Positions 30,439 through 35,904 of a stretch of DNA of 64,000 bases are shown here, in pieces. The stretch lies in assembly GCA_963793425.1 (NCBI GenBank), contig CAWCAG010000005.1:1280001-1344000 (forward strand). Direction: 5' to 3'. How positions within the stretch are numbered: the first letter of the stretch is position 1; every line of letters starts with the position of its first letter. The translations under genes were made by a program, and so were the position numbers. The DNA is from an uncultured cyanobacterium. Lineage in GTDB: Bacteria; Cyanobacteriota; Cyanobacteriia; Cyanobacteriales; CAWCAG01. The notes beneath the pieces were generated by a model, which was not told the origin of the DNA, did not search any database, and saw only the letters and a list, made by a program, of their open reading frames with translations.

Positions 30439-31911
30439 CTAGAAAAGTTCTCCGAAGCCTTTCTTTTTCTTACCTTTCTTCTTCTTCTTCTTAGAACCTC
30501 CTGAATAGCCGCGAAAACCAGGGCGAGGTGCATTTCCTCCCATACCCCCAAACATTCCTCCTAAGCCGCCTCCCATACCACCCATTCCGGGCATTTCCAT
30601 TCCGGGCATTCCTCCACCTTGCCCCATTTGCTGCATCATGCCTCGCATTCGGGTAAAATCTTTAACTAATTTGCCGACATCGCTTTCTTTAAAGCCGGAA
30701 CCTTTAGCGATGCGGCGGCGACGGCTAGGAGATTTGGCGAGTAAGTTTGGTTCAGTCCTCTCTTCTGGGGTCATGGAATTAATCATGGCTTCAGTACGTT
30801 TGAGTTGTACTTCCCCTTTTTCCAAGTCTGAACTACTCAACTTGCCCATGCCGGGAATCATCTTCATCAATCCCCCCAAAGAACCCATATTTTTCAAGAG
30901 GCGCATTTGTTTAAGGAAGTCATCGAAGCCAAATCTCGCTTCCATGATTTTGGCTTGCATTTCCGCTGCATCAGCGATATCTACTTCTTCCTGGGCTTTT
31001 TCTACCAGGGTTAAGACATCCCCCATGCCCAAAATACGAGAGGCCATACGGTCAGGATAAAAGGGTTGTAGGGCTTCTACTTTCTCCCCTACCCCCACAA
31101 ATTTGATAGGTTGACCAGAAATGCGACGTACAGAAAGGGCTGCCCCGCCACGACTATCTCCATCCAATTTAGTGAGAATGGCCCCAGTGATGCCGATTTG
31201 TTCGTGGAAGGTGTAAGTGAGGTTGGCAGCTTCTTGCCCTGTCATGGCATCTACCACCAGGAGAGTATCGTCAGGTTGAACTGTTTCTTTAATACGTCCC
31301 AACTCTCCCATCATTTCTGGGTCAATTTGCAACCGTCCGGCGGTATCAATGATAACGGTATCAACCCCCATTTCTTGGGCTTTTTCTACCCCTTGACGGG
31401 CAATTTCCACCGGATCAGCATCTTTACCCATTTCAAACACAGGTACATTAATTTGCTGCCCTAAAGTGAGTAATTGGTCAATAGCTGCCGGGCGGTAAAT
31501 ATCTGTAGCCACCATTAAGCAGTCGCGATCTTGCTTCCGCAAATGTAGGGCTAATTTAGCTGTGGCAGTGGTTTTACCTGTACCTTGCAAACCTGCCATC
31601 AAAACCACCGTTGGTTTAGTCTCTGCTTGGGCGAGAGGGACGTTGGTTTCCCCCATAACCTTAACTAATTCATCGTGGACAACTTTAATAAATTGCTGAT
31701 CAGGACGTACCCCAGAAACCACTTCTGACCCTTGGGCTTTGCTTTCTACCTCGGCGATAAAGTTTTTAACCACCTGGAGGTTAACATCCGCAGCTATAAG
31801 GGCGCGACGCACTTCTTTTAAGGCTTCTTGAATATTAGCTTGGGAAATTTTGTCTTGACCGCGTAGCTTTTTCCAAGCATCTTCTAAACGGTCGGCTAGG
31901 GCATCAAACAT
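30439..31911 (-). CDS. ffh: Signal recognition particle protein
   Basis: GLQGTGKTT, DTAGR, TKLDGD; Met-rich M domain. Confidence 0.98.
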   Translation of the reverse strand: MFDALADRLEDAWKKLRGQDKISQANIQEALKEVRRALIAADVNLQVVKNFIAEVESKAQGSEVVSGVRPDQQFIKVVHDELVKVMGETNVPLAQAETKPTVVLMAGLQGTGKTTATAKLALHLRKQDRDCLMVATDIYRPAAIDQLLTLGQQINVPVFEMGKDADPVEIARQGVEKAQEMGVDTVIIDTAGRLQIDPEMMGELGRIKETVQPDDTLLVVDAMTGQEAANLTYTFHEQIGITGAILTKLDGDSRGGAALSVRRISGQPIKFVGVGEKVEALQPFYPDRMASRILGMGDVLTLVEKAQEEVDIADAAEMQAKIMEARFGFDDFLKQMRLLKNMGSLGGLMKMIPGMGKLSSSDLEKGEVQLKRTEAMINSMTPEERTEPNLLAKSPSRRRRIAKGSGFKESDVGKLVKDFTRMRGMMQQMGQGGGMPGMEMPGMGGMGGGLGGMFGGMGGNAPRPGFRGYSGGSKKKKKKGKKKKGFGELF

Positions 31912-32004: not shown

Positions 32005-32607
32005 TTACTGGTCAATTAACTCGGAGTTAAACTCGTTGAAGGAACGTCTTTTTAATTGTATTGACTCAGAACGAGGCAGGAGATCAAAGACCTCCCGGAA
32101 AACACTATCAATGTCTTCAAACTTAGCTTGTCCAGTTTGGTTAAAGACAATCTCACGATTTTGATTTAGTAAGACAGTCTGAGGAATAGCCCCTTGGTAG
32201 TAATAACCTACTTCTTCAGGATTGTATTCATCCTTGATAGGAATAGAATCAACATTAATGGGTATAAAACTGGCTACTTTGCCATAAAATCGCTGTAGCT
32301 GGGAGATAACCTCAGAAAATCTTTTGCAATCGCTGCTATCTTCTACATAAAAAACTAACAGAGCAACTTTGTCTCTTTGGAAAGATTCCATCAAGGTCAT
32401 GCGGGGCGGAACTAAAGAACCATTTCCAGCATAAAGAGCAAAAATATTCCCATCAAACCTATCATCTTCAAGCCCTGCCGTTGCTGAGGGGGTTCCTAAC
32501 ACTAAGAAACTAATTAGCCCAACCAGGAGCGTTATTGAGCAAAAGCGCAAGGAAATTTTTCTTGAATGGAAGTTATTTAGCCAGTAGCGCAACCGCGAAA
32601 AAATCAT
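32005..32607 (-). CDS. Thioredoxin-like thylakoid protein (photosystem I accumulation factor family)
   Basis: DDRFDGNIFALYAGNGSLVPP and C-terminal RRSFNEFNSEL. Confidence 0.75.
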   Translation of the reverse strand: MIFSRLRYWLNNFHSRKISLRFCSITLLVGLISFLVLGTPSATAGLEDDRFDGNIFALYAGNGSLVPPRMTLMESFQRDKVALLVFYVEDSSDCKRFSEVISQLQRFYGKVASFIPINVDSIPIKDEYNPEEVGYYYQGAIPQTVLLNQNREIVFNQTGQAKFEDIDSVFREVFDLLPRSESIQLKRRSFNEFNSELIDQ

Positions 32608-32691
32608 AAAGTTCTATTTACCAATTAAATCAGCTATTATTAATAGTACAGCTAGGGGCTGTGGCTCAGTTGGATAGAGCAAGCGCCTCCT

Positions 32692-33542
32692 GAACAATCG
32701 GGCCTCTTGGGGGAAACCCTAAGTAGTGAATGCGGTCAAATTCAAGGAAGCCTAAGTCTGGTCAAACAGAGAGGGTAATCTTGAGCCAAGCTTATAATTT
32801 GTCGATTCGGCAAGTTATTAAGAAGGTGCAGAGACTGGTTGAATGAGAGCTAAAAATGATGGACTATAATGTCTCATCAAAAGTAGAGCAAAGAGGCATT
32901 CTGACCGGGATGTTATTAGGTGCAAGTAGGAGGAATAAACAAAATTTCTACCTCCAACACCTGAATTTGCCAGAGGAATATGTTTTGTTTAAAAAGCAAC
33001 TCCTTGAACAAATCATTCGCAAGCCAGTTAGTCTTCGGGAAGAGAAAAGTAGTAAAGGCGAACCCTTGATACGTTTAGAACCAAAGTTGATTCCTTTAAC
33101 TAGGGTTTTGGTTAAGAGGCTTTATCAAGGAACAACACCTATAATTACAAGTAAGTTCCTGCGTTTTTTAACCCCCCCAGGTATAGCAATTTGGTTTATG
33201 GATAAAGGTTCTAAATCTTTTAAGAAGAAGAACGGCAAGATCCATAGCCTAGAAGTTAACTTCAATACCAATATCTGCCAAGCAGAAAATGAATTGATAG
33301 TAGCTTATTTTGCTGAAGTTTGGGGTTTTAAGTGGGGATTAAGCAAAAGTGGAAAGGCTTACCGTTTAAGGATGGGAACGAAAGAAGGTAAAAGATTTTT
33401 TGATTTTCTTCGTCCCTATATCCATCCCGCTATGCTCTACAAAATAGAAACCTCTTGTCAACATAACGGCCGCCACCTAAAAGAGCTTTTGCTCTGATGG
33501 TGAAGGGATAGTCCAGAGAGTAAGGAAACTTACACAAATCTG
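32692..33542 (+). ncRNA. Group I intron (IC3/Azoarcus-like core with a P7.1 insertion)
   Basis: Preceded by U, ends in G; P1 CCU-GA-ACAA-UC-GGG with U.G; P AAATTCAAGGAA, Q AATCTTGAGC, R GTGCAGAGACT, S AAGGGATAGTCC; P3 GCGGTC/GGCCGC; GAAA-capped P2 and P9. Confidence 0.95.
32856..33497 (+). CDS. Intron-encoded double-motif LAGLIDADG protein (I-SceI-like), catalytic Asp residues substituted
   Basis: Motif 1 ILTGMLLGAS, motif 2 LTPPGIAIWFMDKGS, C-terminal LRPYIHPAMLYKI. Confidence 0.88.
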   Translation: MMDYNVSSKVEQRGILTGMLLGASRRNKQNFYLQHLNLPEEYVLFKKQLLEQIIRKPVSLREEKSSKGEPLIRLEPKLIPLTRVLVKRLYQGTTPIITSKFLRFLTPPGIAIWFMDKGSKSFKKKNGKIHSLEVNFNTNICQAENELIVAYFAEVWGFKWGLSKSGKAYRLRMGTKEGKRFFDFLRPYIHPAMLYKIETSCQHNGRHLKELLL

Positions 33543-33591
33543 AAGCGCTAGGTCGCCGGTTCAAATCCGGCCAGTCCCGTTTTTTCAGTGT

Positions 33592-33798
33592 ATGGCTTGC
33601 CGTTTTGTTGATGATCAATTTAGCCACTTGAGTTTAATTTGGTATAAGCAATGGTTGGTTGCCTTTTCTCTGGCAACATTAGCTTTTTTCATGGTGTCTG
33701 CATTTAGCCAACCAGCACAAGCTTTATCATTAGTTGGTAATGACAGCACCGAACAAGTAGAAGAAACTGTTGAGAATGCTAAAGATGCTATTGATTAA
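33592..33798 (+). CDS. Small exported protein or remnant; start uncertain
   Basis: Hydrophobic stretch ending PAQA followed by an acidic tail. Confidence 0.35.
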   Translation: MACRFVDDQFSHLSLIWYKQWLVAFSLATLAFFMVSAFSQPAQALSLVGNDSTEQVEETVENAKDAID

Positions 33799-33901
33799 TT
33801 AACTAGTACTTCGGTTGTATGAGTTTTTGAATTAGGTTTATTTCACTGTCGTGATTGCCTAATTCAATTTTTTTGCTGCGATCGCTTTTTTATTTCAGGC
33901 T

Positions 33902-35869
33902 TCAGTTAACTTTCAACACTCTAGTAGCATTGAGGATTGCTAAAAGCGCTACCCCTACATCAGCAAATACTGCTTCCCACAGAGTTGCTACCCCAATTGC
34001 TCCTAGCAAAATAAATAGTGCCTTAACTGCCATTGCCAGGATGATGTTTTGCCAAACAATAGAATGAGTTTTACGAGCTATACCTATTGCCTCTGCTACC
34101 TTAGAAGGAGCATCATTCATTAGCACCACATCGGCAGTTTCTATAGCTGCATCAGAACCTAACGCTCCCATTGCTATCCCGACATCTGCTCTCGCAATTA
34201 CCGGTGCATCGTTGATACCATCACCCACGAAAGCTACTTTGCTTTTTTTGTCAGACTGATGAAGATACTGCTCGATTGCTTCTACCTTGTCTTCTGGAAG
34301 CAATTGCGCTTTGTAGGTGTCTAGACCAAGCTTACTGGCAACCCTTCGAGCCACAACTTGGTTATCTCCCGTCAGCATTACAGTTTCGGTGACTCCTGCT
34401 TTTTTCAATCGGGCGATCGCATCTTGAGCATCTTCCTTAATCCTGTCGGAGATTAAGATATAGCCAGCATATTTTCTATCTATTGCTAGATGAACTACCG
34501 TACCTTCAACATTACAAGTATCATGTTCTATCTTTTCTCTGTGTAAGAGGCGATCGTTCCCTGCCAATACTGACATCCCTCTGACTTTAGCACTAATACC
34601 GTGTCCGGGAATTTCTTTATGATCAGCGACATCAGAATCGGTAATAGTAATGTCAGCCGCAGCAATTTGATTGCCGTAAGCTTCAACAATGGATCGCGCC
34701 ACAGGATGATTGGATTGAGATTCGGCGATCGCAGCAATAGTAAGTATTTCTTTTTTCCTATAGCCGTTATAAGCAGTTACTTGAGTAACTTGGAATACAC
34801 CTTCAGTTAACGTTCCAGTTTTATCAAAAATTACCGTTTTAACATTGGTCAAGGCATCGAGAAAAGTCGAACCCTTAACTAAAATACCTCTTTTGGCTGC
34901 ACCACCAACTCCACCAAAGTAACCCAAAGGAATACTAATTACTAATCCGCAGGGACAGGATATAACTAATAATACCAACCCTCGATAAAACCATTGTTCG
35001 CTAGTTGCACCAGGAATGAATAAGGGGGGTAAGATAGCAACTGCTAGAGAGAGAAAAACTACAACGGGAGTGTAGTAACGGGCAAAACGAGTAATAAATT
35101 TCTCTGTTGGAGCTTTTTTACTGCTGGCATTTTCTACCAAGTCCAAAATTTTAGCAATGGAAGATTCGGCAAATATTTTGGTGACTCGAACTTTTAAACT
35201 ACCTGTTTGGTTAATCGCACCTGCTAAGATTGTTTCTCCTTCTCTTACAGTTTGAGGTACGGATTCACCCGTAAGTGCCGAAGTATCAATCTGGGAAGTA
35301 CCTGATAGTATCTCACCATCTAAAGGAACTTTCTCCCCTGGTTTGATCACAATCCTATCTCCAACTTCTACTTTTTCAGGGTTAACTTCTCTTATCACTC
35401 CATCAATAACTAGACTTGCCTTGTCAGGACGTATTTCTAATAGTGACTTAATCGAACGACGTGAGCGCCCCACCGCAAAACCCTGAAACAGTTCTCCAAT
35501 CTGAAAAAACAGCATTACTGCTACCCCTTCGGGTAATTCATGAATTGCGATCGCCCCTAAGGTTGCAATAGTCATCAAAAAGTTCTCATTAAATATTAGA
35601 CCCCGCAAAATATTAGACCCCGCACTGGTTAATACACTCCAACCGCTTATGAAGTAGGCGGGAATTAAAACTGCGTATTCTGCGATCGCACCAGGAGTAT
35701 TATGCAAAGGCTGGTTAAAGATTAATCCAATCAGAAATAGAGCGATCGCAATACTAAGAGGTATTAGTTCTCGACTTAAATTAAACTCACCATGCTCATG
35801 GCTATGATTATGATCCTGATGATGATTTTCATCGGTAGAACAGCAACTAGTGGAATGTTTACCTGACAT
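33902..35869 (-). CDS. Zn/Cd/Pb-exporting P1B-type ATPase (ZiaA/CadA-like)
   Basis: N-terminal CC + His-rich tract, TGES, SCPC, DKTGTLT, GDGINDAP; likely start 35869. Confidence 0.95.
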   Translation of the reverse strand: MSGKHSTSCCSTDENHHQDHNHSHEHGEFNLSRELIPLSIAIALFLIGLIFNQPLHNTPGAIAEYAVLIPAYFISGWSVLTSAGSNILRGLIFNENFLMTIATLGAIAIHELPEGVAVMLFFQIGELFQGFAVGRSRRSIKSLLEIRPDKASLVIDGVIREVNPEKVEVGDRIVIKPGEKVPLDGEILSGTSQIDTSALTGESVPQTVREGETILAGAINQTGSLKVRVTKIFAESSIAKILDLVENASSKKAPTEKFITRFARYYTPVVVFLSLAVAILPPLFIPGATSEQWFYRGLVLLVISCPCGLVISIPLGYFGGVGGAAKRGILVKGSTFLDALTNVKTVIFDKTGTLTEGVFQVTQVTAYNGYRKKEILTIAAIAESQSNHPVARSIVEAYGNQIAAADITITDSDVADHKEIPGHGISAKVRGMSVLAGNDRLLHREKIEHDTCNVEGTVVHLAIDRKYAGYILISDRIKEDAQDAIARLKKAGVTETVMLTGDNQVVARRVASKLGLDTYKAQLLPEDKVEAIEQYLHQSDKKSKVAFVGDGINDAPVIARADVGIAMGALGSDAAIETADVVLMNDAPSKVAEAIGIARKTHSIVWQNIILAMAVKALFILLGAIGVATLWEAVFADVGVALLAILNATRVLKVN

Positions 35870-35904
35870 AATCCAAAACATTTAAACAATTTTTATAAAT
35901 GAAC

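Follow-up and report, generated by a model that had tools for sequence, protein, structure and literature searches.

A LAGLIDADG protein without its catalytic aspartates, encoded inside a group I intron of a cyanobacterial tRNA-Arg(CCU) gene, as a candidate splicing cofactor

Contig CAWCAG010000005.1 of an uncultured cyanobacterium of the Cyanobacteriales (CAWCAG01; assembly GCA_963793425.1) carries, within the 64,000-nucleotide stretch analyzed here (positions 1,280,001 to 1,344,000 of its forward strand; henceforth the window, whose first letter is position 1), a tRNA-Arg(CCU) gene interrupted by a group I intron, which in turn contains an open reading frame (ORF) for a protein of the LAGLIDADG_2 family. 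We found that this protein belongs to the I-SceI-like single-chain fold and lacks both of the aspartates that bind the catalytic metals in I-SceI, that the same loss recurs across its family, and that the ORFs without these acids are under purifying selection as strong as that on the ORFs that have them. Considering these results along with the placement of the ORF within the ribozyme, we see about an even chance that its product, no longer a nuclease, binds nucleic acid and acts as a maturase-like splicing cofactor of the group I intron encoding it.

An I-SceI-like protein without its catalytic acids

The ORF occupies positions 32856-33497 of the forward (+) strand and runs uninterrupted for 213 codons, with zero internal stops, to a TGA codon; the start conserved in the family is its second ATG, at 32859. 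Residues 13-181 of the product match the complete Pfam profile LAGLIDADG_2 (PF03161; profile positions 1-168 of 168) with an E-value of 3e-29, scoring 102.5 bits where the cut-off is 25. A whole-genome scan reproduced this match as the sole one to PF03161 in the genome, making the ORF single-copy. The protein is basic, with 23 lysines and 14 arginines among its 213 residues and a pI of 10.0, so that the description of an intact, Lys/Arg-rich LAGLIDADG ORF given in an earlier note on this DNA, which was made from the letters of the sequence, holds in full and goes well beyond what chance would produce.

By sequence, the nearest solved proteins are I-WcaI (6x1j) and I-SceI. An AlphaFold2 model built with 54 aligned sequences (mean predicted local distance difference test score (pLDDT) 89.7; predicted template-modeling score (pTM) 0.86) consists of two alpha-beta-beta-alpha-beta-beta-alpha halves that form a saddle: the helices of the N-terminal half span residues 9-21, 40-54 and 80-89, and those of the second half residues 107-117, 142-156 and 175-188, with two strands following the first and again the second helix of each half. 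Residues 202-213 have pLDDT values below 50 and are predicted to form a disordered tail. A Foldseek search with the model returned I-WcaI and I-SceI at the top (template-modeling (TM) scores of 0.74-0.75; E 4e-12 to 1e-9), in agreement with the I-SceI fold that the earlier note had anticipated, and further down came the bI3 maturase (2ab5), ranked 9th (TMq 0.56), WhiA (ranks 18-24) and I-AniI (ranks 35-45). The ORF product is an I-SceI-like single-chain member of the LAGLIDADG_2 fold, and databases name the proteins of its family "DNA endonuclease".

The two LAGLIDADG motifs are GMLLGAS (32907-32927, +) and WFMDKG (33192-33209, +). The family-profile alignment places GmllGk opposite G39-L-I-L-G-D44 of I-SceI and a phmmer alignment places WFMDKG opposite W141-F-M-D144-D145-G; thus, A23 (GCA, 32922-32924) and K117 (AAA, 33204-33206) occupy the positions of the catalytic residues D44 and D145, and the replacement of both aspartates, which had been the central claim about this ORF, is borne out. 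In I-SceI these two aspartates are metal ligands, and mutants of D44 and of D145 are inactive. The acid (Asp or Glu) that closes each LAGLIDADG helix in active endonucleases is absent at both motifs, from which we infer that the window protein probably no longer cleaves DNA.

Recurrence of the acid loss and selection on the acid-free ORFs

A word-indexed search recovered 157 relatives, and the best 120 of these were aligned with the window protein in a family alignment of 121 rows; among the matches listed, the named relatives are nearly all cyanobacterial. Both aspartates are present in 34 of the 121 rows, one acid is present in 19 and neither in 68, so that the loss of both acids from a retained fold, initially remarked upon for this one protein, is a recurrent feature of its family. 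At position 23 there is Asp in 42 rows, Glu in 1 and any of 11 other residues (V, Q, N, A, K, W, G, S, T, H or R) in 78. Position 117 has Asp in 43 rows, Glu in 1, Lys in 38, Arg in 20 and others in 19; Lys or Arg thus fill 58 of its 77 non-acid rows. The flanking L20, G22, D116 and G118 are invariant throughout. The idea that the two substitutions are themselves conserved fits the closest homologues, with A/K in P0001-P0003 and in G001 (a relative of the same genus) and G/K in P0004; it does not extend to the family at large, in which position 23 takes 11 non-acidic residues and position 117 is mostly K or R.

As a baseline from the wider LAGLIDADG_2 family, we used the best 150 HMMER representatives minus P0092, a member of the present family (149 rows). 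Of the 111 rows with both columns aligned, 99 are Asp-Asp. The acid loss is particular to this intron ORF family, and it is old. A tree of 126 rows, computed with columns 23 and 117 removed, was rooted on five distant proteins of the Asp-Asp type, and its basal lineages are Asp-Asp. The window protein groups with A/K and G/K proteins in a clade of 5 rows (support 100), and the enclosing 36-row clade (SH-aLRT 92) has an acid at neither site in any row, with K117 in 26 of the 36; every ORF in it is open and its branches are up to 0.66 changes per column long. On this tree, position 23 requires no fewer than 11 changes between acid and non-acid, and position 117 no fewer than 12. The residue state tracks taxonomy, with D/D in 8/8 Coleofasciculus, Q/R in 4/4 Laspinema and W/K in 3/4 Spirulina.

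With one genome taken per species, the family has 59 loci: 55 are in tRNA-Arg(CCT) introns that share one insertion site, one (L052) is in a tRNA-Leu(TAA) intron, and the 3 unplaced loci are a truncated copy (L054) and two at contig ends (L058 and L059); a free-standing copy of the ORF was not seen among them. The ORF is uninterrupted in 55 of the 57 loci L001-L057, and the 56 intact ORFs, the window's and these 55, comprise 12 with both aspartates, 14 with one acid and 30 with none. Of the broken copies, L057:1501-2089 (D/R) has a frameshift in an AAG-rich run near codon 123, and L054:1501-1929 is missing codons 1-57 and lies beside unrelated sequence.

Two further features of the family loci may be recorded here. 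First, the ORF of L052 (L052:1315-2323; Pyrinomonadaceae, Acidobacteriota) is Asp-Asp, with 55% identity and an identical start (ATGGACTATAATGTCTCATCA), and it follows AGAGACT inside a stem, at the equivalent place, but in the tRNA-Leu(TAA) intron of an acidobacterium; a second Pyrinomonadaceae protein (P0119) is included in the basal clade of 16 rows, 15 of which are Asp-Asp. This suggests that a module of ORF plus helix may have moved between tRNA introns and between phyla. Second, the conserved ATG start is replaced by ATA, along with linked changes (ATAGACTnTCATGTCTTATCA), in L016, L027, L029, L034, L037, L038, L040, L043 and L056; in L040, L056 and L043 an in-frame ATG is found farther upstream, in the 5' part of the ribozyme, giving products of 222-247 residues.

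To quantify selection, we estimated the ratio of nonsynonymous to synonymous substitution rates (dN/dS) by the NG86 method on codons 12-198, leaving out codons that overlap RNA elements, along with pairwise maximum-likelihood (ML) values. The window ORF and that of G001, both A/K, give an NG86 ratio of 0.17 (bootstrap 0.10-0.30; dS 0.40) and an ML ratio of 0.25. Eight other sister pairs with shared dead residues range over 0.09-0.26 (ML 0.13-0.35), as against 0.12-0.25 (ML 0.17-0.29) for four pairs of Asp-Asp Coleofasciculus ORFs, and in the Q/R, W/K and x/C clades all within-clade pairs lie at 0.11-0.35. The dead ORFs are under purifying selection, and it is as strong as in the ORFs with catalytic residues; a dN/dS below 1, as the earlier note's proposal implied, is what we obtained, and neutral evolution was not seen.

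These ratios bear directly on the simplest explanation of a catalytically inactivated intron ORF, namely that it is a functionless homing endonuclease gene decaying after fixation, as in the Goddard-Burt cycle. Loss of a catalytic acid is the expected first step of such a decay, introns without the ORF (described below) resemble its end point, and the family does include one frameshifted locus (L057) and one truncated locus (L054); moreover, as far as the accessible part of a study of coral introns goes, acid loss there accompanies a raised nonsynonymous rate (Ka) (PMC5344465). The dN/dS results contradict this explanation, as the values within the clades that share dead residues (0.09-0.35) are no higher than those of the Asp-Asp clades. 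Likewise, the 36-row acid-free clade has all its ORFs open in spite of its long branches, and 30 of 30 species-level loci with no acid are intact. We regard plain decay as scarcely credible.

We also compared site entropies between the Asp-Asp rows (n=34) and the dead rows, i.e., those with no acid. The two groups are unequal in phylogenetic depth, and hence only the large site-specific contrasts carry weight. Sites that are near-fixed in the Asp-Asp rows and variable in the dead rows are S36 (33/34 Asp-Asp rows; entropy 0.19 vs 2.38 in dead rows; L in the window protein), K38 (32/34; 0.32 vs 3.28; L), R61 (32/34; 0.38 vs 2.17; R), Y139 (33/34; 0.19 vs 3.04; N) and E143 (29/34; 0.94 vs 2.96; A). 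Positions 36/38 and 139/143 are pseudo-symmetric, since each pair follows the second strand of its half-domain, and in the predicted structure these four residues probably line the former active site. Among secondary-structure classes, mean entropy rises the most from Asp-Asp to dead rows in the strands (0.97 to 1.34) and the least in the helices (0.78 to 0.92).

The same comparison is relevant to the possibility that the protein is an endonuclease or nickase with a non-canonical active site, formed, for example, by D116 and other residues, and that homing still drives its conservation. D116 and G118 are invariant in 121/121 rows, the saddle fold is predicted with high confidence, the one-acid forms (19/121 rows) could be nickases, and intronless, ORF-less and ORF-bearing alleles coexist in the order, as they would in an active homing cycle. 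However, D116 is equally invariant in the Asp-Asp forms and so is no replacement for the lost acids. Further, the 11 residues found at position 23 are chemically unrelated, the near-invariant sites of the Asp-Asp rows relax in the dead rows only, and the prevalence of the Asp pair among the wider relatives (99/111) is as expected if the pair is required for cleavage. A non-canonical nuclease is, in our assessment, very unlikely.

A gene within the ribozyme core and its possible role in splicing

ARAGORN, run with its intron option, identifies a tRNA-Arg(CCT) gene at 32655-33579 with an 851-nt intron at 32692-33542 following the third anticodon base, i(38,851). In this and the other ORF-bearing introns, the ORF forms the loop of a P7.1 hairpin situated between P7 and P3', and its final codons overlap the P7.1 3' strand, P3' and P8. 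In the window, the 5' strand of this ORF-bearing helix (32837-32849, +) pairs with a 3' strand (33450-33463, +) that lies within the last ORF codons and has one extra base, mirrored in the 5' strand. The helix covaries across loci, with the strand pairs GUUGUAG/CUACAAC, GUUUAAGGA/UCCUUAAAC, GUUUGAG/CUCAAAC, GUUGCUG/CAGCAAC and GUGAUCAGAG/CUCUGAUCAC. Its sequence anchors were located in 43 of 56 loci (the other 13 were missed by the regular expression), and in these 43 the duplex averages -12.65 kcal/mol, whereas pairing to shuffled 3' strands gives -5.14 (sd 2.41); the outlier L034 (-2.0 kcal/mol) probably results from a wrong anchor. The common form of the family protein has 206 residues and ends at a TAA in the P8 5' strand. 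In the window, the extra base in the P7.1 3' strand has shifted the C-terminal frame and extended the ORF to the TGA at 33495-33497 in P8; a long tail is likewise seen in the same-genus relative G001, with 227 residues from the conserved Met.

This architecture would create a conflict that a bound protein could relieve. As the ORF sits in the P7.1 loop between P7 and P3', folding of the catalytic core must bridge about 640 nt of ORF, and translation into the core and folding of the ribozyme would be mutually exclusive on one molecule. A protein that binds and holds the P7.1/P3-P8 region would ease this conflict between folding and translation. A maturase-like role is favored by several lines of evidence: the ORF is found only within tRNA introns and yet is kept by purifying selection; it splits P7 from P3' and runs into P3' and P8, which amounts to a folding handicap; and there are the precedent of bI3, where an acid was likewise replaced by Lys, the K/R bias at position 117, and a reported bacterial LAGLIDADG maturase. 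It is from these that we infer RNA binding and an effect on splicing for the window protein. More tentatively, and with rather greater doubt, we propose that I-SceI-type endonucleases were converted many times independently across cyanobacteria into nuclease-dead cofactors that bind the intron RNA, the Lys or Arg at the motif-2 metal site contacting an RNA phosphate. The dependency on the protein would in this case be self-inflicted, as it is its own 640-nt gene that splits the catalytic core.

Several observations weigh against a splicing role. We surveyed tRNA-Arg(CCT) in 41 genomes of the same order and obtained 30 loci, one of them without a tRNA call, the remaining genomes having exon-length matches without loci or no match. 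An ORF-bearing intron of 840-970 nt occurs in 7 of the 41 genomes, the window's included, and an uninterrupted tRNA-Arg(CCT) gene occurs in 7 (L112-L118); the commonest state, in 15 of the 41, is an ORF-less intron of 204-330 nt at the same site. As ORF-less introns are this frequent, the ribozyme evidently works without the protein once the ORF is lost. Nor is core-helix decay seen in the ORF-bearing introns across the four classes compared: of 59 core pairs, a mean of 57.8 is kept in ORF-less introns, 57.5 in those with an Asp-Asp ORF, 57.6 in those with one acid and 56.6 in those with none, the lower last value being due in part to alignment gaps. Decay of the core often accompanies protein dependence in introns; an intact core does not exclude a dependence caused by the 640-nt insert. 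Further, the constraint on the ORF is not specific to the dead state, because Asp-Asp lineages show the same dN/dS. Columns 23 and 117 undergo 30 and 26 changes on the tree (ranks 47 and 56 of 204; median 15), which makes them clearly above average and not the fastest, and their high entropy is partly clade structure. Finally, while ARAGORN finds no uninterrupted tRNA-Arg(CCT) gene in the window's genome, it finds two tRNA-Arg(TCT) genes (as well as an uninterrupted tRNA-Leu(TAA)), and with tRNA-Arg(UCU) genes present it is uncertain what the host gains when tRNA-Arg(CCU) is spliced efficiently.

Some of these points would be accommodated if the dead protein were kept for another kind of nucleic-acid binding, be it as a sequence-specific DNA binder domesticated in the manner of WhiA and acting on the tRNA-Arg locus or another site, as a translational autorepressor acting on the intron RNA, or as a regulator of tRNA-Arg(CCU) supply. 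Intact cores and frequent ORF-less introns would mean that the RNA may need no folding help, and purifying selection persists without the catalytic residues under this explanation too. WhiA, a domesticated LAGLIDADG DNA binder, is among the fold matches, and the rise in beta-strand entropy (1.34 in dead rows vs 0.97 in Asp-Asp rows) would fit a changed ligand. High-affinity DNA binding is retained by bI3, according to the accessible portion of PMC3173205. On the other hand, 56 of the 59 loci are in tRNA introns, the rest being the truncated copy and the two contig ends, and the ORF is single-copy in the genome and has been lost along with the P7.1 loop in many lineages. One would expect a regulator serving the host to have left the intron or to be retained more uniformly, whereas the ORF was found in just 7 of the 41 genomes surveyed from the order. 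We therefore consider such a role rather unlikely, and favor the maturase-like cofactor.

The ORF-less introns provide the reference for the anatomy of the ribozyme. RNAalifold was applied to 14 of the 15 (L103 was left out on account of wrapped ARAGORN coordinates); it recovered helices P1, P2, P3, P4, P5, P6, P8 and P9, with compensatory changes at 32 of 80 predicted pairs. An extra hairpin between AGAGACT, on the P7 side, and P3' is present in 8 of the 14 and absent from the other 6; the ORF-less introns with a P7.1 stem are L091, L093, L095-L097, L101, L105 and L108. In those with the GUUGUAG/CUACAAC stem (L091, L093, L096, L097 and L101), the segment from the 3' strand through P3' matches the final codons of the ORF-bearing form almost exactly (CTACAACATAACGGCCACCACCTAA), and these introns look like precise deletions of the ORF or a pre-invasion state.

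In the window, the 5' exon of the tRNA gene (32655-32691, +) comprises the acceptor stem, the D arm, the 5' half of the anticodon stem and the loop through CCU, and is 86-97% identical to the intronless tRNA-Arg(CCT) genes of relatives; the 3' exon (33543-33579, +) does not encode CCA and has a T-run downstream. The 851-nt intron (32692-33542, +) ends in the omega-G at 33542. In P1 (32689-32702, +), exon CCU and intron GA pair with UCGGG, and U32691 and G32700 form a wobble pair at the 5' splice site; its consensus pairs 36-40/46-50 are present in 14/14 introns of the ORF-less alignment and were mapped to the window by eye. The P3 5' strand GCGGTC (32732-32737, +) pairs with GGCCGC (33468-33473, +), which lies inside the ORF, and corresponds to pairs 81-86/349-354 of the ORF-less alignment, with compensatory changes. 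The conserved AGAGACT at the boundary of the P7 5' strand and J7/3 (32830-32836, +) is near-invariant across the aligned introns, and ATAGTCC, covering J8/7 and the P7 3' strand (33508-33514, +), is identical in 14/14 ORF-less and 7/7 compared ORF-bearing introns; AGAGACT is presumably the P7 5' strand, in view of the known group I topology, and ATAGTCC the P7 3' strand. The P8 hairpin CACC...GGTG (33474-33502, +; pairs 355-358/418-421 and 363-365/412-414) holds the TGA of the ORF in its 3' half, and the P9/P9.0 region (33516-33542, +; pairs 433-462) consists of a GTAAG-GAAA-CTTAC hairpin at 33520-33533 and the terminal G. Of the 59 core pairs, the window intron forms 56 canonically.

The Rfam model Intron_gpI (RF00028) has one match in the whole genome, which is this intron; it scores 53.2 bits in a local scan (gathering score 50), but when the whole genome is scanned it falls short of the cut-off, with 47.7 bits. 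In both scans the 3' half of the model has to align with ORF sequence, as the actual P3', P8 and P7' are downstream of the ORF, whose last codons run into the first two. The resulting placement of P3' and P8 inside the ORF was replaced by the elements at 33468-33502, which align with those of the ORF-less introns.

Throughout the family, synonymous sites are near-frozen in codons 2-11 of the ORF (window 32859-32891), with a normalized synonymous entropy of 0.30 as against 0.71 for codons 12-197; the codons in question are GAC (58/58), AAT (33/33), GTC (57/60), TCA (40/40), AAA (60/62) and GTA (45/45). This points to an RNA-level element at the start of the ORF. A column-by-column scan found no convincing pairing partner for codons 2-11. 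A pairing of GGACUAU (codons 2-4) with AUAGUCC at 33508-33514 was dropped, as the latter, the J8/7-P7 strand, never varies; for a long-range helix between GUAGAG (codons 10-11) and CUCUAC (codons 194-195), some changes are compensatory and several break pairs, and the scan lends it no support.

A scan of 32400-33800 for promoters and terminators gave matches no more frequent than in shuffled sequence. From a reading of their translations, the neighboring ORFs, all on the reverse (-) strand, encode an Ffh/SRP54-like GTPase (30439-31911), a 200-residue protein with an N-terminal hydrophobic segment (32005-32607) and a heavy-metal P-type ATPase in which the motifs CPC and DKTGT occur (33902-35881). 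No link between the intron and these three ORFs is evident.

Significance and comparison with known systems

The transition from endonuclease to RNA cofactor has been studied so far in a few mitochondrial cases, namely bI3, bI2 and I-AniI, and the family described here is a candidate for a bacterial instance of this transition, set in a tRNA ribozyme that is small and well understood. Its stages are found side by side in related genomes: intronless gene, ORF-less intron, Asp-Asp ORF, ORF with one acid lost and ORF with both lost. With many independent losses at hand, comparative and biochemical tests are directly feasible, and the recurrent conversion proposed above, if true, would supply at least 12 natural replicates of the change from endonuclease to maturase, in bacteria that can be cultured. 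Should the protein not be a maturase, some other explanation is needed for a strongly constrained nuclease-dead LAGLIDADG protein. The label "DNA endonuclease", which annotation pipelines assign, is probably incorrect for about two thirds of the family, the rows without acids among them. Our literature search, to which subscription and older publications were largely inaccessible, found no description of LAGLIDADG ORFs within tRNA-Arg(CCU) introns of cyanobacteria or of these catalytic losses. Intron-encoded cleavage-dead LAGLIDADG proteins are already known; the new elements are the bacterial tRNA setting and the unusually rich set of parallel losses.

With other bacterial group I introns in tRNA anticodon loops, the present intron shares its small size, sporadic distribution and the presence of intronless alleles in relatives. 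The endonuclease of the tRNA-fMet intron is of another fold family. In the accessible text of two accounts of cyanobacterial introns, the established intron-bearing tRNA genes named are only those for Leu and fMet (PMC5733544, PMC8450103).

I-SceI and I-WcaI (1r7m, 6x1j) are, like the window protein, single-chain proteins, of about 230 residues, that match it in both structure (TM 0.74-0.75) and profile (E 1e-8 to 1e-9). They differ in being active, with both aspartates in place (GxxxG-D and WFMD-D-G), in residing in mitochondrial rRNA introns, and in having only 20-22% identity to the window protein. I-AniI, from the cob intron of Aspergillus nidulans, is an intron-encoded LAGLIDADG protein whose splicing role is described as being under host selection in the part of PMC2647301 that is accessible; unlike the window protein, it is bifunctional, retains its catalytic residues and is mitochondrial. 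In bacteria, the LAGLIDADG maturase of a Thermotoga neapolitana 23S rRNA intron is reported, again in the accessible portion of the article, to stabilize and activate its own intron (PMC3984707). It too is encoded by a bacterial group I intron, the difference being that the host gene is for an rRNA rather than a tRNA.

The closest functional precedent is the bI3 maturase of yeast mitochondrial cob intron 3 (2ab5), a group I intron-encoded LAGLIDADG protein that, according to the accessible text of PMC3173205, lost cleavage through the replacement of a catalytic acid by Lys, kept nucleic-acid binding and acts only as a maturase. The retained fold and the acid-to-Lys change are shared with the window protein. 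bI3 belongs to an I-AniI-like lineage rather than the I-SceI-like LAGLIDADG_2 family, its host is a mitochondrial protein-coding gene, and its maturase activity was shown experimentally; in the window family the role is predicted from sequence, both motifs are dead and the loss is recurrent within a single family. Recurrence of this kind has a parallel in coral COXI introns, where, in the accessible part of PMC5344465, both LAGLIDADG motifs are acid-free in some clades and acidic in others, and the loss goes with a higher Ka. The coral case is read as decay, whereas the family described here presents the opposite picture, with dN/dS in the acid-free clades as low as in those that have kept the Asp pair.

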